The translations under genes and the position numbers were made by a program. Below, in pieces: positions 34,089 to 42,472 of a stretch of 64,000 nt of DNA. Under the pieces are notes generated by a model. That model was not told the origin of the DNA. It searched no databases and saw nothing but the letters and a program-made list of their open reading frames with translations. The first letter of the stretch is position 1, and every line of letters begins with the position of its first letter. The stretch lies in assembly GCA_965200645.1 (NCBI GenBank), contig CBDAUN010000003.1:1152968-1216967 (forward strand), read 5' to 3'. This DNA comes from Arenicellales bacterium. GTDB taxonomy: Bacteria > Pseudomonadota > Gammaproteobacteria > Arenicellales > JAJDZL01.

Positions 34089-36905
34089 TTACGCGAACAG
34101 TCGATTTTCACCGCTGCCAGCAACATTCTCCACACACCTTGAACAGATTTTAGGGTAGTTTGGATTTGTATCCACGTCAGGAGTCTGATGCCAACATCGA
34201 GCACACTTTTCATTTGTCGACTTTTCGACTTGGAGCGAAACATCCGCCAATTCAGTTTTGACTGCACTATCAGAACAAGTCGTTAGTTGCTTGATTGCGC
34301 AACTAGATGTAATCGTTAAGAACTTGAGTTCATCACCAAGACTGTCCAAATCCTTAAAATAACACTCATCTGCATAGATTGTGACATTTGCATCCAAAGA
34401 GGAACCAATATCACCTTTATCACGCAACGATTCCAACTCACGAATAACCGTGTTTCGAACCTTGATAATCCGATTCCAAAACTCGTGGTCGACTGCAATT
34501 CCTTCCGGCCAACCGTCGTACCACGTAGAGATTAATGCAGATTCACTGCTCTCACCTGGCACATGCTTCCACAATTCTTCTGCCGTGAAGCTCAGAATTG
34601 GCACAATCCAGCGTACAAAGGCTTTCAGAATGTGATACAGCGCAGTTTGCGCTGACTTTCGTCCACGACTATTGCGTGGCATGGTATACAAACGGTCCTT
34701 GATAATATCCAGATAAAAGCCGCCCAATTCAACAATACAAAATTGATGAACTTTCTGGCAAATCAAATGAAATTTATATTCTTCATAGGAACGAATAATT
34801 TCATCGTTTAGAGATTTGGTAACTGAAACCACCCATTGGTCTAAAGCCAATAGATCATCCCACTCCAAGCATTCAGACGGATCAAACCCATCTAAATTTC
34901 CAACCATAAAGCGGGCAGTATTTCGAATTCGCCTGTAGGAGTCTGCAGTTCGCTTAAGAATTTCATCCGAAATTCCCATTTCAGCATCGTATTCAGTCGA
35001 ACATACCCACAAACGCAGTACATCCGCACCCAAAGTGTCAATCACCTTTTGCGGTTCAATTACATTACCGAGCGACTTGGACATTTTCTTCCCTTCACCG
35101 TCGACAGTGAATCCGTGCGTTAGCACAGAGTTGTAGGGAGCCTGTCCGGTTATTGCAACACTAACAAGTAGACTTGATTGAAACCAGCCTCTGTGCTGGT
35201 CTGATCCTTCAAGATACATCCCAGCCGGATTTGTTAGCTCACCCCGATTATTGAGCACACTGAAATGTGTCGCACCAGAGTCAAACCAAACATCCAATAC
35301 ATCGTCTACCTTTTGATAGGCTTCAGAGTTTTCTTGTATCAAGTCCGAGACACTCAAATCAAACCACGCGTCTATCCCGCCCTTTTCGACATGCTGAGCA
35401 ACGACTTCCATAATATCCAGTGTATCCGGATGCAGTTCACCAGTCTCCTTATGGGTAAGCAGCGTAATCGGCGTTCCCCAGACTCTTTGTCGTGATAAAC
35501 ACCAATCGGGACGATTTAACACCATGCCGCTGATACGTGCCTCTCCCCAAGTTGGTACCCATTGCACATTCTTGATCGCTTCCAGTGCCTGGTCTCGGAG
35601 TTTAGTCCGGTCCATACTGATAAACCACTGAGGAGTCGCTCGATAAAGAATGGGTGATTTATGCCGCCAACAGTGAGCATAACTGTGTTTGATGGATTCG
35701 GTACAAAGCAAAACTTCACGGTCTTGCAGTAACGAAATTATGATGTCAACGGCCTTATCAACAAATATGCCACCGACATCTGGAGTGTCGGGCAGAAATA
35801 CACCGTTGGGTCCGACTGGATTTACAATTTCAAGATCGTTTTCCTTACCCAACGCAAAGTCTTCGTGACCATGTCCAGGAGCAATGTGAACCAACCCAGT
35901 ACCGGATTCCAGTGTGACATGATTACTGACAATAACCGGCACTTCCAGGTCGGCACCAAACATTGGATGATTTACTTTCAGTCCTTGAAGCTGTTTACCT
36001 GAAACTGTGCCGACTACTTTGAAGGTGTCAATTGCAAACCGTTCTACACAGGATTCCACTAATTCACTTGCCAGTACTACGTACTCACTACCGTTCTTTG
36101 ATTCCCATTGCACCAGCGAGTAATCGATAAGTTCATTGACTGCTACAGCACGATTTGCTGGTAGTGTCCACGGAGTTGTAGTCCAAATTGCTAAACTAAT
36201 GGGATATTCATCAGTAGATGACGCACCAAAGGCTGAAAATACAGACTCTCGGTCAGTTGCCCTGAGTCTCACATCTACAGTCTTCGACACCTTGTCCATG
36301 TACTCGATTTCGGCTTCAGCGAGTGCTGAACCACAATCCGCACACCAGTAAACTGTCATCAAATCATTCTTCAGATGTCCTTTACTAATGATTTTTGCAA
36401 GAGCCCGTACCGTGTTAGCTTCGGTCATATAGTTCATTGTGAGATACGGATTGAACCAGTCGCCGATCACACCCATTCGTCTGAATCCAATACGCTGTCT
36501 TTCGATTTGTTCCGTAGCAAATGCTCTACAGGCCTGACGAAATGCCTTCGGGTCATCACGGTAGGTCGAACGACCAAACTTTTTTTCTACTTCGTGCTCG
36601 ATGGGCAATCCATGACAGTCCCATCCCGGTACATATGGAGAATCATAACCATTCAATGTCTTGGATTTAACTATGACATCCTTAAGAATCTTGTTTACTG
36701 CATGTCCAATGTGTAGTGCACCGTTAGCATATGGCGGGCCGTCATGAAGCACGAACTTTTTGCGTCCTTCACCTGCTTTACGTAACTTGCTGTTAATGTC
36801 TATCTGATCCCAAAAATCAAGTATCCCTGGTTCCCGCTGAGCCAGATTCGCACGCATGGGAAATTCTGTTCTTGGAAGATTGATTGTGTCTTTATAGTTA
36901 GTCAT
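34089..36905 (-). CDS. ileS: Isoleucyl-tRNA synthetase
   Basis: 938 aa with the HIGH motif ([15 protein letters not shown]), the KMSKS motif ([10 protein letters not shown]), a CP1 editing domain and a C-terminal zinc cluster (CARCWH...CSRC). Confidence 0.97.
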
Positions 36906-37930
36906 CTTTTGACGAAAGAATTGAATTTTTATTTATAGAATCTATTTTCCTGAACACTGGTGATTTTGTGGGATCAGAAAAGAAGTTTGAAAGCGCCGGA
37001 AATAATCAGTACGACTACAACGTAAGTTGCTATTTTACTTAAATTTCTAGAAAGTTTTTTGACGCAGTAGAAGGCTTTCGAGAAACACTTCGGACTGATA
37101 CGACAGGTTCAACTCCTTCTCCAAGAAACCAAAAAATCGGCTGTTAGTGGGCAAACATTAGCATTGGCTGGGTTTGTCATATTCGCTGTACCCTCTTAGT
37201 GTTTGATCCTACTTAAGCAGTCGCAGGGAGTGATAAGAGTTCTTTATGTATGGATCACACAGAGTGTGAGTAATAGCCACAATAAATTGCTGGATTTGAT
37301 TGAGAGAGAGACAAATCCGAGTACTTTTGGGCAGTGACCAACAACTCGGCACCGCTAAATAATGCCACCAAGTGTGGATACCTTTAAATTGTTTTGCTCT
37401 TAACCAACAGTGGCAACACCGAAGTCAGAGTTTCAGGCGAGGGAACTCCGTTTCACTTGAGAGCATAATACAGTACGACTCTCAAATCAGAGACCCATAT
37501 CATAGTCGCCATCGAAGTCTCATTTTCTTACTCCGCTAGTCCCGGCGCCACTAATTTAAGTGATCAATCGACATTACACTATGTACCCGCAACGCATTAC
37601 CATTTGTAACAAAGAATAAGGACACCTTTTCAGGTAGGCGGCGACCCGAGCAAAGGAAATTTAAAGGACTAATATCACTTCAACTATTTGTCCAGGGAGA
37701 ATTGTAAAACTTTGAAGAGGTTGTTTGGGTGTTAGTAACCACGGGAGTATGTGTACCTGAACCGAAATTGTTTTTCCTGGCAAAATCGACAAGTGAGAGA
37801 TGCCCGAAAACCGTATCAGAAAAGGTGAAAACCGCTCTACAGCAGAGTGTTGGCCCTTTCTTCTTGTGCTTATTACAAAAATCTTGGTCTGATTGCGACC
37901 TTGCCTCGGAAGTTGTGATAAGCAGCACCT

Positions 37931-38944
37931 TTAGGAACTGGATTCGTCCGACTCCTGTCGCAACGCAGTAATCTCATCTTGAGAAAGATCGCTATACTCT
38001 GCAATAGTAGAAGTACTAAGTCCCCCATGAATCATTTTCATTACAATTTCCTGCTTGCTCTTCAGCACTTCCTTCTTAAGTTCCTTCTTAAGTTCCTTCT
38101 TAAGTTCCCTTTTAAGTTCACGATCAAAATGTTGTTGGGCCAATGACGCTCCCATTTTTTCCACCTCACTCATTGTCATGTCGGGTTGCTTGTTTAATCG
38201 ATCTAATTCACGAGTATACAATCTCGCCACTGTATTGTGAATCAGCTCACTGACCGCTTGCTGCAGCGCCTCCGGCCAGTTGACCTTGGCTCGGTCAAGC
38301 AGATAACCTCGTTTCCGGTAATCTTCAGCACTGCTGGACTGTACCATGTGGGCAATACATGCCATCACATTGGTGCTGATATCCCCTTCAAACGCCCACT
38401 TGTGCATATCAAGCAACCAAAAGCGCTGCTGTGGCTGAAGCGTCTCAAGCAATCCGTCGCACGAGACCTGTAACTTGCGAAAGTCGGTCCAGGCATAGTC
38501 CTTTTCAATGAACTTGCCACTGTAAATGACGATCGGCAACACTAACGGCAACTCTAGCTTGCCTTGATCTAACTGCGCTTTATGCTGACTGACCCATTTA
38601 CGATACATCTCATTGACACAATCGTACATCCGGATGCACAACAGTCTCGGTAAAGTGGTTTGAAACTCCACCAACACAAACATCAGTATCTTACGTCCCC
38701 CAAGCATCCCTTCACCGCTCCATACGGCATCCACTTGACGGCGCTCCAGACCTTCGGTAATGAACTCATCTCGGTGCTGTCGCAGTGAAGCTGCATCAAA
38801 CTGTGCGTAATCAGCACCTAAACACCCTTCAATTAAATCCTTTACCGCCCGCATATTTTCAAAGACCATTTTGTATGAGGCATCGTGTAAGTCCGTTTTT
38901 TTCTTTTTCTTGTGGTGTTGCTTCACCGGTGATTCTTTCGCCAT
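37931..38944 (-). CDS. Rpn-family (YhgA-like, PD-(D/E)XK) recombination-promoting nuclease/putative transposase
   Basis: The N-terminal HDASYKMVF resembles the HDxxFK start of Rpn proteins. It also has a D...(V)EFQ nuclease core (VDAVWSG...VLVEFQTT), LPLVLPIVIYSG, and a C-terminal HTH-like GLSTSTIAEYSDLSQDEITAL. Confidence 0.75.
   Translation of the reverse strand: MAKESPVKQHHKKKKKTDLHDASYKMVFENMRAVKDLIEGCLGADYAQFDAASLRQHRDEFITEGLERRQVDAVWSGEGMLGGRKILMFVLVEFQTTLPRLLCIRMYDCVNEMYRKWVSQHKAQLDQGKLELPLVLPIVIYSGKFIEKDYAWTDFRKLQVSCDGLLETLQPQQRFWLLDMHKWAFEGDISTNVMACIAHMVQSSSAEDYRKRGYLLDRAKVNWPEALQQAVSELIHNTVARLYTRELDRLNKQPDMTMSEVEKMGASLAQQHFDRELKRELKKELKKELKKEVLKSKQEIVMKMIHGGLSTSTIAEYSDLSQDEITALRQESDESSS
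38069..38116. repeat. 12-bp tandem repeat x4 inside the rpn-like gene, encoding (KELK)n
   Basis: ttccttcttaag occurs three times perfectly (38069-38104), followed by ttcccttttaag (38105-38116). On the coding strand this gives ELKRELKKELKKELKKE. Confidence 0.9.
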
Positions 38945-39451
38945 AGGGCAGTCTCCTTAAACAATGGTCGTGGTGCTGGATTGCCGATAAACGGAAATAC
39001 AACAAATTGTCGTAGTAGTGATAGGAACTGGCTTGGAATTTCAATCTTCAATGATTGAAATCCTCGCCATTCTCGAGTATGCAACGTAACTGAGCAAACC
39101 GTTGTTTGCCAGTGCCGGACTGACTAAAAAGTCATAAGCGTTGCGATAGCAAAAGCATATCACAACAAAGTCTCGACATAATGACTTTCAACCTCATAGG
39201 TCGAAGATGGCACACCTGGTTAACTATCTAAGCCACAATCTGGACTTTAAAGAATTTTATGAATTAAATCTGGCAAAACCTGCGCAATAAACAAGATGAG
39301 TGTAATTACCACATCATTCAGCGGGTTTACTTTGAGTATCGAACTGAATTTCAGTCTGAACGGAAGTGTGAAACAACAAACAGTACAACTGCAGCAAGTT
39401 CACTACGTGATTGGTTGGGCAGGTCTTGAATATCAACCCCAAATTTCCCGG

Positions 39452-40402
39452 CTAAGAAGCAATTTTCGAATCAAGACCTCCAAAGTAATCTCGACATTGG
39501 ACAATATCCTGACGAATTTGATCATTCATCGTCTCTATAGTCGAAAACTTAACTTCTTCCCGAAGTTTCTTCAAAAACTTAACTTGAATGCGCTTGCCGT
39601 ATAAGTTGTGATTGAAGTCCAAAATGTGTGCTTCTAGGATTAGACGATTACCTCCTACGGTCGGACGCCAGCCTAAACTTGCTGCGGCAGGTAAACATCG
39701 CCCCGACTCTATTCCGCCGACTTCCGCAACAAACACGCCAGTCATAGGCGGGTTCTGACTTTGTGGAATAATGTTGGCAGTGGCGAATCCCCAGTTCGAA
39801 GCGTTGCCATTGCCTCTGACAACTCGCCCCGACATCGAATACTCTCTCCCAAGATATCTGGCAGCTAAGGCAAGCTGTCCAGACTTGAGCAGTTCTCGAA
39901 TTGTCGTACTGCTGACCCGCTCAGAACCAATCATAAATGAGTTGGTCTTTTCGACGCTGACGCCCAACTTTGTACACCGAGTGTGTAACATTTCAAAATT
40001 TCCACGGCGATTTCGGCCAAAACGAAAATCATCCCCAACTACAATGTGTCGGGCACCTAGTTTCTCAATCAGTAGATTGGAAATAAATTCTTCCGGTTCA
40101 GTGTTCGCCAGATTATGATCAAAGCGTAAGCAACAGAATCGATCAACCCCTAAGTCTGCCATTGCTTCAAACTTTTCACGCACCGTCATCAAACGAGGAG
40201 GGGCACGGTCCGGCACGAAGAACTCCATCGGATGCGGCTCAAAACTAATAATGGCAACGGCCAACTTCAACCGCGCCCCAGTTTTCGCCAGCGAACGAAT
40301 GACCTGCTGGTGACCCAAATGAATTCCATCATAGTTTCCAACTGAAACTACACAACCGTGATGCTGCGGTCGAATATTGTGAACTCCGCGTATGAATTCC
40401 AT
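39452..40402 (-). CDS. ribF: Bifunctional riboflavin kinase/FMN adenylyltransferase
   Basis: FMNAT motifs VSVGNYDGIHLGHQ and SFEPHP, plus a riboflavin kinase C-terminal domain (GFATANI, PMTGVFV, LEAHILDF). Confidence 0.93.
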   Translation of the reverse strand: MEFIRGVHNIRPQHHGCVVSVGNYDGIHLGHQQVIRSLAKTGARLKLAVAIISFEPHPMEFFVPDRAPPRLMTVREKFEAMADLGVDRFCCLRFDHNLANTEPEEFISNLLIEKLGARHIVVGDDFRFGRNRRGNFEMLHTRCTKLGVSVEKTNSFMIGSERVSSTTIRELLKSGQLALAARYLGREYSMSGRVVRGNGNASNWGFATANIIPQSQNPPMTGVFVAEVGGIESGRCLPAAASLGWRPTVGGNRLILEAHILDFNHNLYGKRIQVKFLKKLREEVKFSTIETMNDQIRQDIVQCRDYFGGLDSKIAS

Positions 40403-40478: not shown

Positions 40479-40892
40479 CTACGCCCAGTCCGGTCGAATT
40501 TGCTCGATCACCTCTTCGACCGGCTCGCGCGTTGCAAATCCGCCGGTATATTCATGAAAATGAGATACCTTCAACTCTGGATACTTCCAACACAGATATC
40601 CGTCTCCGGTATCGAAATCCAAAAGCCATAGCCCCTTCACTGTCACCCCAAATCGCTCCATTTTCGACACCCACTTCCTGACGATCTCTTCGTACTGTGC
40701 CTCTACTTTCTTGAGTCGTGGATCATTGGGCAACAGGTTCGCTAGTTCACGTCGAACCAAATCCAATTGTTTATAGGATTCCGAAGTGATTGCTTTGATC
40801 GCAGGAAGTACAGAATTTGCTTCGCAGAGAGTGAAATATCGAGTCTCGCCTGGGGAGACTAGGTGGACTAATTTCTCAACTGTGTCACTCAT
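40479..40892 (-). CDS. DUF2203-like small conserved protein
   Basis: YFTLCEANSVLP..., LLDFDTGDGYLCWKYPELKVSHFHEYTGGFATREP resembles DUF2203 from memory. The ATG at 40892 overlaps the murJ stop as ATGA and is preferred to the track's start at 40937. Confidence 0.55.
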   Translation of the reverse strand: MSDTVEKLVHLVSPGETRYFTLCEANSVLPAIKAITSESYKQLDLVRRELANLLPNDPRLKKVEAQYEEIVRKWVSKMERFGVTVKGLWLLDFDTGDGYLCWKYPELKVSHFHEYTGGFATREPVEEVIEQIRPDWA

Positions 40893-42472
40893 CTGGGCAT
40901 TCGCTTGTGGACACGAACTCCGAGTACAAATAGGCAAACGAAATAAATGACTGCACCTAAAACAACCAAAAGTGTAAGATTAAAAATCCGCTCCCAAATA
41001 CTGTATTCCAACCATATTGAAGGTTGTGATTTAAACCACCATAATGCCAATCCCATTATAGTAGAAGCACCTCCAACCTTAATTAAAAACATAGTCCAAC
41101 CCGGCAGAGGGATGTAGACATTTTGCCTCATCAACAGTACCATCAATATCCCTGCATTTATGAATGCCGCAATAGATGTTGCTAATGCCAATCCAACATG
41201 CTCTAGAAATTGCACGAGCACGATAGCGAGAATTGCATTGGCAACCATGGCGACCACTCCTGCGTTGACCGGTGTTTTTGTGTTGTTGCGGGCAAAAAAG
41301 CCCGGAGACAGCACTCGAACGGCCATTAACCCTGTCAATCCGATTGCATAAGCTAATAACGCGTTTGAAGACATTACAACATCCGTAGCAGTAAATTCAC
41401 CGTAGAAGAACAGCGTCGTCATCATGGGTTCGGCCAACACAATCAAACCGGCAGTGGACGGGAACGCAATGATTAAGCACCAGCGCATCCCCCAATTGAG
41501 CAAAGAAGAGAACTCCTCCTTGTTGTGTTCAGCGTGCACTTTGGACAGTCGCGGTAAAATGACTGTACCGATTGCCACTCCAAACACACCAAGTGGAAAC
41601 TCCATCAACCTATCGGAATAGTACAGCCATGACACACTACCTGTCACTAAAAATGAAGCAATAAAAGTATTGATGACTAGATTTAGCTGAGCAACCGAAC
41701 TACCAAAGATCGCAGGAAGCATAAGTCGCTTGACCTCACGCACACCTTCGCGGGATTCGGGGTCATTTTTCAGCCGAATTCGCGGTACGGGCATCACCTT
41801 TTTTTGAAGCATGAAGGGTAACTGAAAGACTAGCTGAATCACTCCGGCGGCAAATACCCCAATCGATATAGCAATGGCGGCATTTTCTACGAAACCTGTC
41901 AGCCAAAGTGCGGCTCCAATCAAAGTAAGATTGAGCAATACTGGACTAAAGGCAGGCGAAGCAAAGTGTCCGTAGGTGTTAAGTACGGCAGCACTCATCG
42001 CTACCATACAAACAAAAAACATGTAAGGAAACGTCAACCTCAAACATTCAACCGTTAGATTGAATTTTTCTGGTTCCGCCCTAAACCCAGGTGCCAATGC
42101 AGAAATCAATAGTGGCGCTGTAGCGACACCGATGATTACAAGAAGTACCAATATAAATCCGAGCCGACCGGTAACTAAATTCACGAACCGGCGAACATCT
42201 TCCGGCGGTCTAGATAGTTTTTGTTGGGTATAAACCGGTACGAAGGCGGCTGAAAATGCACCTTCACCGAAAATTCTGCGAAAGAAGTTTGGAATTCGAA
42301 AAGCAACAAAAAATGCGTCAGCAAGAAATGTGCTCCCTACCAAATTGGCGAGTATGATGTCGCGAGCCAAGCCACTGGCACGAGACAACGTTGTCATCGA
42401 TCCAAAAACAGCCGTCGATTTCAGCAATCCCTTTGATCCAGATTGGATCTTGCTTTCTGAGTTTTCACTCAT
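40889..42472 (-). CDS. murJ: Lipid II flippase MurJ (MviN)
   Basis: 527 aa, 14-TM MOP-superfamily profile with an N-terminal LLKSTAVFGSMTTLSRASGLARD. It is divergent from rpsT as in most gammaproteobacteria. Confidence 0.9.
   Translation of the reverse strand: MSENSESKIQSGSKGLLKSTAVFGSMTTLSRASGLARDIILANLVGSTFLADAFFVAFRIPNFFRRIFGEGAFSAAFVPVYTQQKLSRPPEDVRRFVNLVTGRLGFILVLLVIIGVATAPLLISALAPGFRAEPEKFNLTVECLRLTFPYMFFVCMVAMSAAVLNTYGHFASPAFSPVLLNLTLIGAALWLTGFVENAAIAISIGVFAAGVIQLVFQLPFMLQKKVMPVPRIRLKNDPESREGVREVKRLMLPAIFGSSVAQLNLVINTFIASFLVTGSVSWLYYSDRLMEFPLGVFGVAIGTVILPRLSKVHAEHNKEEFSSLLNWGMRWCLIIAFPSTAGLIVLAEPMMTTLFFYGEFTATDVVMSSNALLAYAIGLTGLMAVRVLSPGFFARNNTKTPVNAGVVAMVANAILAIVLVQFLEHVGLALATSIAAFINAGILMVLLMRQNVYIPLPGWTMFLIKVGGASTIMGLALWWFKSQPSIWLEYSIWERIFNLTLLVVLGAVIYFVCLFVLGVRVHKRMPR

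Follow-up and report, generated by a model that had tools for sequence, protein, structure and literature searches.

In a 64,000-nucleotide stretch of an Arenicellales genome (GenBank assembly GCA_965200645.1, contig CBDAUN010000003.1, positions 1,152,968 to 1,216,967 of the forward strand; this whole stretch is called the window, and coordinates refer to it), the core genes ribF and ileS are separated by 2546 bp (36906-39451). The sole gene in this gap is a 337-amino-acid (aa) open reading frame (ORF) of the Rpn/YhgA-like nuclease family (37931-38944, minus strand), which is transcribed in the same direction as ribF and ileS. It is flanked by 507 bp on the ribF side and 1025 bp on the ileS side without a credible ORF, the 1025-bp stretch being the largest intergenic gap of a window that is 91% coding. 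As described below, the gap is a real, lineage-specific accessory insertion, with about 2.4 kb of extra DNA, in a conserved core gene junction. The three genes concerned are as follows.

39452-40402, minus strand: ribF, bifunctional riboflavin kinase/FAD synthetase, the upstream neighbour (PF06574 FAD_syn, E 3.8e-53; PF01687 Flavokinase, E 3.1e-34)
37931-38944, minus strand: rpnL, 337-aa Rpn/YhgA-like PD-(D/E)XK nuclease, putative toxin (PF04754, conserved residues, Shine-Dalgarno (SD) sequence, AlphaFold2 (AF2) model)
34089-36905, minus strand: ileS, isoleucyl-tRNA synthetase, the downstream neighbour (PF00133, E 1.7e-140)

In the five closest Arenicellales genomes, whose RibF proteins are 60-72% identical to that of the window, the gene order murJ-DUF2203-ribF-ileS-lspA is kept throughout and ribF and ileS lie 121-183 bp apart (5/5). 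The corresponding gap measures ~10-160 bp in six more distant gammaproteobacteria, and no rpn homologue was found at any of these ribF-ileS loci. The original prediction, made from the letters of this DNA alone, had given the end of ribF, the start of ileS, the 2546-bp gap and its 507- and 1025-bp flanks, all of which proved exact on re-analysis. It had also read the gap as an accessory locus inside a core operon, which the short, rpn-free gaps of the relatives bear out, and had recognized one same-strand gene of the Rpn family, a kind reported as toxic or antiphage; the PF04754 match, the conserved residues and published work (PMC10400941) agree with this. Its premise that ribF and ileS are normally separated by a tiny gap fails for this order, since relatives free of the insert already have 121-183 bp. 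The comparison with relatives by which it had proposed to define the insert thus confirmed the insertion but not its ends: no RibF with an identity between 72% and 100% was found among GTDB genomes, JGI metagenomes and 5.8 billion proteins. As far as sampling goes, the insert is therefore confined to this species, and its ends can be approached by paralogue comparison only, there being no closer relative to supply an empty site.

The exact RibF protein is encoded on ~20 contigs from other samples, some of which extend into the gap. Contig L018 (ENA) runs from ribF through rpn into 520 bp of the downstream spacer (window 41677-37396) and is 99.1% identical to the window. Contig L024 (Logan, a different sample) covers the whole spacer and continues into ileS (window 37926-33879) with 99.9% identity; within the spacer it differs from the window by 2 single-nucleotide polymorphisms (SNPs) and no indels. 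Contigs from further samples (L019-L021 and L023) lead from ribF across the edge of the repeated unit described below. L018 and L024 were assembled independently from other samples, which rules out an assembly artefact, and the insertion is fixed in every sampled population.

The rpn gene and its internal start

The product of the gap ORF matches PF04754 (Transposase_31/YhgA-like) over residues 20-204 with an E value of 4.8e-12 and a score of 46.3 bits (cut-off, 21). When 1.8 billion representative proteins were searched exhaustively with HMMER, ~1000 homologues came up at E <= 0.001, the best of which outside the protein's own cluster is 32% identical (E 8e-19). Five residues, D21, D72, E93, Q95 and R105, are invariant in a 22-sequence alignment (A2) and correspond to D11, D63, E82, Q84 and R94 of Escherichia coli RpnA, which mutagenesis has shown to be needed, without exception, for RecA-independent recombination (PMC5350276). 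In RpnA the substitutions D11A, D63A, E82A and Q84K abolish recombination, toxicity and SOS induction, and the Q84A and R94A proteins are still toxic (PMC5350276). In the AF2 model (predicted local distance difference test, pLDDT, 77.5), one long helix (258-306) and two short ones come after a core of mixed alpha/beta structure; no significant sequence match was found to solved structures, including those of RpnS proteins. We conclude that the gene is, to judge from its family match and residues, a divergent but intact Rpn/YhgA-like nuclease.

Characterized rpn genes encode a toxic full-length nuclease, RpnL, and also yield RpnS, a small antitoxin that consists of the C-terminal domain and is translated from a second in-frame start inside the gene (Zhong et al. 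2023, PMC10400941). The first helix of RpnS contains four-residue repeats, which begin 8-20 residues past the RpnS methionine and vary in number between strains, and RpnL is neutralized only by RpnS of matching repeat number (PMC10400941). Counterparts of these features were located in the window gene.

38213-38241, minus strand: sigma-70-like site in rpnL, TTCACA-17-TATACT, candidate rpnS promoter (10/12 consensus matches)
38161-38167, minus strand: internal SD sequence GAGGTGG, 5 nt upstream of the internal ATG (anti-SD pairing -9.8 kcal/mol)
37931-38155, minus strand: rpnS, predicted 74-aa in-frame C-terminal protein (M264-S337), putative antitoxin (internal start site)
38063-38122, minus strand: 12-bp (four-amino-acid) tandem repeats RELK RELK KELK KELK KEVL (direct-repeat family D1)

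The SD sequence in front of ATG 38155 (M264) is the best of 33 in-frame starts and falls within the top 0.9% of 6298 coding windows. At the annotated rpnL start the pairing energy is -9.2 kcal/mol, the strongest of the 48 ORF starts in the window, for which the median is -0.7 kcal/mol and only 2/48 lie at or below -7; these starts were taken from the longest ORFs and some may be misplaced. Both rpn starts are thus SD outliers, a hint at foreign origin or at special translation signals. A methionine stands in the same alignment block as M264 in 17/19 distant homologues, where it is preceded by Glu-rich codons. The TTCACA-17-TATACT site, 58 nt upstream of ATG 38155, is the best promoter-like site between 36700 and 39600, a region in which 5 such sites were found against a shuffled expectation of 4.4, i.e., not above chance; it is identical in the second copy of the gene, on contig L013 (see below).

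The predicted RpnS begins MGASLAQQHFD, and the repeats start at its residue 12, within the published range of 8-20 (PMC10400941). There are 5 repeat units in the window versus 8 in L018, which represents the same locus in another sample; the copy on L013, a second locus, has 8 units of different sequence. The short-read contigs L019, L021 and L023 break at the tandem repeats. In the model, the C-terminal domain is predicted to consist of helices 258-306, 311-318 and 322-336, with pLDDT values of 74-91 over residues 281-337, an arrangement of one long and two short helices like the three-helix bundle of RpnS proteins. The RpnS region also aligns weakly with the C-terminal portion of the TIGR01784 model (E 0.005). 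At the sequence level, then, the gene carries the hallmarks of an RpnL/RpnS gene-within-gene toxin-antitoxin system. By analogy with the characterized proteins, RpnL would be toxic and RpnS would act as its antitoxin, and any antiphage role would follow from the same likeness.

The repeated cassette and its leader

Comparison of the two copies defines a unit that is larger than the gene.

37917-39207, minus strand: rpn cassette, 1.29 kb (blastn and alignment A1, 95% identity to L013 5167-6493)
38945-39207, minus strand: cassette leader, 263 bp, presumed rpn promoter and 5' untranslated region (conserved and structured; ends in the SD sequence AAGGAG)

A search for further rpn copies, suggested by the original prediction, yielded a single close homologue (P0001, 93%), encoded in a different gene context on contig L013. 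The multi-copy cassette, like the gene-within-gene antitoxin and the variation in repeat number, had been passed over in that prediction. L013 comes from the same ENA sample as L018, and its rpn copy lies between a thiolase gene and a sarcosine-oxidase cluster. Outside the rpn block, the tetranucleotide signature of L013 correlates with that of the window at r = 0.955, compared with 0.958 between parts of the window itself, so that L013 very likely belongs to the same genome. The genomic location of two further Rpn alleles, P0002 and P0003, was not found; the longest contig carrying P0003 and the longest contig carrying the exact RibF are both 1,794,440 bp long, and the two are probably the same contig. 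The copy number of the cassette is hence two or more, and its edges are defined by comparison of two copies only.

The cassette comprises the 263-bp leader, the rpn gene and ~14 bp past the stop codon. Its 5' edge is sharp to ~10 bp, and its 3' edge is graded, the similarity fading within ~25 bp past the stop codon. Several short-read contigs terminate within the cassette, 32-40 bp from its 5' edge (window 39167/39175), and others start at 37926, near the 3' edge; such breaks are expected of a repeated unit. Neither terminal inverted repeats nor target-site duplications were detected at 39207/37917 or at the ends of the gap, no integrase or recombinase was evident (no other ORF or Pfam hit in the gap), and the window contains no tRNA. 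Repeats of 12-14 nt were considered as transposon ends and rejected, being at chance level and away from the boundaries. As a separate observation, L013 carries an insertion sequence-type DDE_Tnp_1 transposase gene (664-2043) located 3.4 kb upstream of the cassette and outside the shared block; it is a possible vehicle or recombination partner of the cassette.

Divergence between the two copies is uneven: 0.6% over the first 1.1 kb from the 5' edge, against about 11% in the tail. Codons 1-274 differ by 6 synonymous changes and 1 non-synonymous change, and the last 46 codons by 5 synonymous and 6 non-synonymous ones, synonymous divergence being ~5x higher in the tail. This pattern points to purifying selection on the nuclease domain, and also to a gene-conversion tract or mosaic with a fast-evolving tail. 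Published rpn loci are described as non-autonomous; their ends are variable and ragged, their tails vary as well, and signs of autonomous transposition were absent across the family (Zhong et al., PMC10400941); the features of the cassette agree with this description.

The leader is identical at 261/263 positions between the window and L013. Its predicted fold (38930-39215) has a minimum free energy of -84.8 kcal/mol (z = -4.06; 0/200 shuffled sequences as stable), and in sliding windows z falls to -4.8. The fold is a series of predicted hairpins, among them the near-palindrome GGATTTCAATCATTGAAGATTGAAATTCC, for which covariation evidence is lacking as the known leaders are near-identical copies. 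The leader has no Rfam match, and IMG/VR contained neither an exact match to it nor a relative of the Rpn protein.

Origin of the insert and expression of ileS

Of the 2.55-kb gap, only 1.29 kb is demonstrably rpn unit; the other 1.25 kb is not attributed and forms two flanks.

39208-39451, no strand: non-coding DNA from the ribF stop to the cassette edge, 244 bp (not shared with L013; GC content 0.40)
36906-37916, no strand: non-coding DNA from the cassette to ileS, 1011 bp (GC content 0.415; 2 SNPs and no indels versus L024)

The 1011-bp stretch contains 12-23 stop codons in each frame. Its GC content is intermediate between coding DNA (0.455) and other intergenic DNA (0.363), which is compatible with decayed coding DNA and is not proof of it. 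Neither flank gave an Rfam family (E <= 1) or a tRNA, and a six-frame Pfam scan of the 1025 bp downstream of rpn (36906-37930, E <= 1) produced no match. The flanks were likewise without blastn matches in the window, the relatives' loci, plasmids and phages, and without a match among viral contigs. A tblastn search with Rpn showed no decayed second copy and no separate downstream rpnS gene, and sliding-window folding of the spacer revealed nothing notable (z no lower than -2.1). When the ileS-proximal 188 bp were aligned to the relatives' ribF-ileS spacers, there was no recognizable conservation; these spacers are too diverged even among one another. The 244-bp stretch may contain part of the ancestral ribF-ileS spacer, and the 1011-bp stretch, which presumably holds the ileS promoter, may be decayed cargo of the original insertion. 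A 102-aa antisense ORF (39296-39604, plus strand) spans the boundary between the gap and the 3' end of ribF. Several ENA and Logan records annotate it as a gene, but it has no Pfam hit and is probably spurious.

On balance we consider it probable that the gap arose by a lineage-specific insertion of ~2.4 kb that includes a multi-copy rpnLS cassette spread by recombination, the rest being decayed DNA. Foreign or duplicated DNA of this length would have lodged in a ribF-ileS spacer of 120-180 bp in this Arenicellales lineage. Its functional core would be the 1.29-kb cassette, in which the structured 263-bp leader precedes a single gene with two likely protein products. The 337-aa RpnL would be a PD-(D/E)XK DNA endonuclease, toxic by analogy with characterized Rpn proteins; the 74-aa RpnS would be the C-terminal helical domain on its own, with in-frame translation beginning at ATG 38155 and transcription probably driven by an internal promoter. 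As in E. coli RpnA, RpnB, RpnC and RpnP2, RpnS may bind RpnL through the long helix that bears the repeats and thereby hold the nuclease inactive, RpnL being set free by a trigger, for example phage infection. A change in repeat number (5 versus 8 at the same locus) would then retune or diversify the RpnL-RpnS interface. The cassette would have been copied or homogenized by recombination (duplication or gene conversion) and not by transposition; the 244-bp and 1011-bp flanks are most likely remains of the ancestral spacer together with decayed co-inserted DNA, and ileS is most likely transcribed from a promoter in its proximal flank, possibly supplemented by read-through.

Several observations weigh against this account. 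Half of the insert (1255 bp) is unexplained, the intermediate GC content being the sole pointer to decayed cargo. No relative above 72% RibF identity is available to fix the true ends of the insertion and the number of events. The assignment of L013 to the same genome follows from sequence composition and the shared sample, not from a closed assembly. The Rpn protein does not reach the curated NCBIfam models (TIGR01784, 21.5 versus 52.1 bits; the RpnA equivalog NF007361, 35.4 versus 583), which makes it a divergent member of the family and not an orthologue of E. coli RpnA-E, and it has no PADLOC hit. The top Foldseek matches in the PDB are restriction-type endonucleases (Nt.BspD6I, MspJI, FokI, PaqCI and HamA) but are non-significant (best E 9e-3, template modelling score <=0.25). 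Translation of RpnS, toxicity and defence are argued by homology to proteins at most ~25-30% identical, and the gene is surrounded by core genes (murJ, DUF2203, ribF, ileS and lspA), with no defence island.

The closest competitor, to which we give somewhat less than an even chance, regards the whole 2.5 kb as one old, horizontally acquired fragment that contained rpn and a second gene, since decayed into the 1011-bp spacer; the identity with L013 would then stem from later gene conversion, and the cassette edges would be the ends of conversion tracts. The intermediate GC content of the spacer, its rank as the largest non-coding gap in a densely coding window, the heterogeneous divergence of the two copies and the fixation of the arrangement with almost no polymorphism across samples all fit this scenario. 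However, the six-frame scan uncovered no trace of any protein family, the searches turned up no homologous DNA, and there is no comparator by which to date the event. The scenario also overlaps with a cassette-bearing insertion and differs from it only in the order of events.

We also considered how ileS may be expressed downstream of the insert. The gene has no SD sequence (anti-SD pairing +1.2 kcal/mol), and neither do ribF and murJ, nor ileS in any of the five relatives. Because SD usage is weak genome-wide, the missing ileS SD is not a result of the insertion. A consensus scan found no promoter-like site with at least 9/12 matches within 480 bp upstream of ileS, the nearest being TTGCCA-17-AACAAT at 37416-37388. 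Both absences had been remarked on in the original prediction; that of the SD sequence turns out to be uninformative, as ribF, murJ and the relatives are alike in this respect. There is no canonical intrinsic terminator from rpn to ileS, the two weak terminator-like sites being no more than expected by chance. In the absence of a convincing intrinsic terminator or a near promoter, read-through into ileS is possible.

GC skew on the plus strand is +0.08 to +0.13 at 36900-37350 and 37650-37950, which corresponds to an excess of C over G on the transcript. About 1 kb of untranslated RNA with C-rich stretches is a classic substrate for Rho-dependent termination. The relatives' 121-183 bp upstream of ileS are, moreover, enough for a dedicated ileS promoter. 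Together, these two points make a local ileS promoter the more likely route of transcription. A -10-like TATAAAT, read from the sequence at 36937-36931, 26 nt upstream of the ileS ATG, is a candidate element of such a promoter. Separately, the ribF-ileS spacers of two relatives (L004 and L005) share CCATTTCAGA(C/A)TAAAATA shortly after ribF, and L003-L005 have TAAAAT(A) at a distance of 85-135 nt before ileS, as does the window at 37037-37032; it is a possible conserved -10 box for ileS, the motif being too short to count as evidence.

That the insert has rewired ileS, with ileS-lspA transcribed mainly by read-through from the rpn or rpnS promoters and an essential synthetase coupled to a defence locus, is accordingly a proposal that we regard as unlikely. 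It goes back to the original prediction, according to which ileS may depend on read-through from ribF and rpn or on a promoter inside the insert. The common strand of rpn and ileS, the lack of a canonical intrinsic terminator between them and the lack of a promoter-like site with at least 9/12 matches within 480 bp of ileS speak in its favor. Yet the long untranslated RNA with its C-over-G stretches offers a target to Rho, the spacing kept by the relatives suggests that ileS has its own promoter in this order, and TATAAAT stands 26 nt from the ATG; consensus scans are weak evidence in an organism whose promoters are uncharacterized, and the absence of SD sequences is genome-wide.

Less likely still are two readings of the inserted DNA itself. 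Leader and rpnLS could form a discrete cassette that propagates itself: its nuclease would promote its spread within the genome, a core operon junction included, and the leader hairpins would serve as recombination or recognition site. Alternatively, a new regulatory RNA acting on the RpnL:RpnS ratio or on ileS could be encoded by the leader or the 1-kb spacer. We think it improbable that either applies. If the former were true, it would supply the first defined ends and a mechanism for the movement of rpn genes.

Slightly lower again do we rate the idea that the cassette is an autonomous mobile element that inserted into a pre-existing long spacer, with Rpn as its own transposase or homing enzyme and the leader as its recognition end. 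The occurrence of the same 1.29-kb unit in two unrelated contexts with a 5' edge sharp to ~10 bp, the 99% identity of the unusually structured leader (z = -4.06) between copies, and the Pfam description of PF04754 as a putative transposase family speak in its favor. But terminal inverted repeats and a target-site duplication are missing, and the graded 3' edge together with the ~5x higher synonymous divergence of the tail is better explained by a gene-conversion tract or mosaic than by cut-and-paste; the comparison is, in addition, limited to two copies. Across the family, variable ends and no evidence of autonomous transposition were reported by Zhong et al. (PMC10400941). Finally, although the cassette is a repeat at which short-read assemblies break and mis-joins are prone to occur, we dismiss an assembly chimera or a strain-specific rearrangement without biological meaning as next to impossible, given that L018 and L024 span the junctions at 99.1% and 99.9% identity to the window and that L019-L021 and L023, from further samples, cross the cassette edge out of ribF.

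Two observations concern the surrounding core block. A DUF2203 gene (40479-40937, minus strand) lies between murJ and ribF in the window; it is likewise found in 5/5 Arenicellales loci and not in the more distant gammaproteobacteria, and is a lineage-specific member of the murJ-ribF-ileS-lspA block. Taken as its longest ORF, the gene shares 49 nt with murJ; a 137-aa version is annotated in other records. In one Arenicellales metagenome-assembled genome (OZ243980.1; L002 8109-9728), a 539-aa gene with SLFN_AlbA_2 and HATPase_c_4 domains is located between DUF2203 and ribF. An accessory gene at this neighboring junction indicates that the core block tolerates insertions at more than one junction.

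Comparison with known systems

The locus offers a natural case of a predicted toxic nuclease/antitoxin gene that has become fixed between essential genes which are usually neighbors, and it reveals a ribF-ileS junction able to accommodate 2.4 kb of additional sequence. Defence genes of this kind are known, and it is the location that is unusual; nothing in the locus lies outside known biology, and the understanding of the family is unchanged. The sequence hallmarks of RpnL/RpnS systems are extended to a very divergent lineage, the uncultured marine Arenicellales, which agrees with the published claim that the gene-within-gene arrangement is widespread (PMC10400941). The comparison of two copies, with its sharp 5' edge, conserved structured leader and mosaic 3' end, adds a small data point on how rpn genes spread.

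The closest parallels are the RpnL/RpnS systems of E. coli (RpnA-E), of plasmids (RpnP2) and of Clostridioides difficile (PMC10400941). In common with these, the window gene has an N-terminal PF04754 nuclease domain with a D...D...ExQ...R signature, a variable C-terminal helical tail, and an internal in-frame start with an SD sequence and a promoter-like site upstream. Shared, too, are four-residue repeats that combine one hydrophobic with three charged residues and differ in number from strain to strain; here they begin at residue 12. The genes also share the presence of several copies per genome, ragged ends and the lack of inverted repeats and target-site duplications. The window protein differs in being only ~22-27% identical to other family members and below the NCBIfam cut-offs. 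Its gene stands alone at the junction of a core operon, outside any defence island or plasmid, and no defence genes neighbor the locus. Proximity to defence genes is a trend seen statistically across the family and is not obligatory. The 263-bp leader, conserved and strongly structured, has no described counterpart among family members.

E. coli RpnA (YhgA; Kingston et al. 2017, PMC5350276) and the window protein share the five residues defined by mutagenesis, a similar length and the order of domains. The PDDE motif of RpnA, in which D165A gives a hyperactive protein, reads LLDM in the window protein. The latter is not an orthologue (~35 bits versus 583) and has an extra lysine-rich extension at its N terminus.

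The cassette resembles insertion sequences and ISNCY-type annotations ("Transposase_31") in being a ~1.3-kb single-gene unit at several sites in one genome, at the edges of which short-read assemblies break. Unlike them, the cassette has no terminal inverted repeats or target-site duplication, and its 3' boundary is graded. Its product is, moreover, a predicted PD-(D/E)XK protein, and no autonomous transposase is known to have that fold.

In E. coli, ribF, ileS and lspA are reportedly organized as an operon and follow murJ in the same order on one strand as they do here. The Arenicellales loci differ from the E. coli one in their insert-free spacer of 121-183 bp and in the DUF2203 gene between murJ and ribF, and the window differs further in a ribF-ileS spacer that has grown to 2546 bp and houses an accessory gene.

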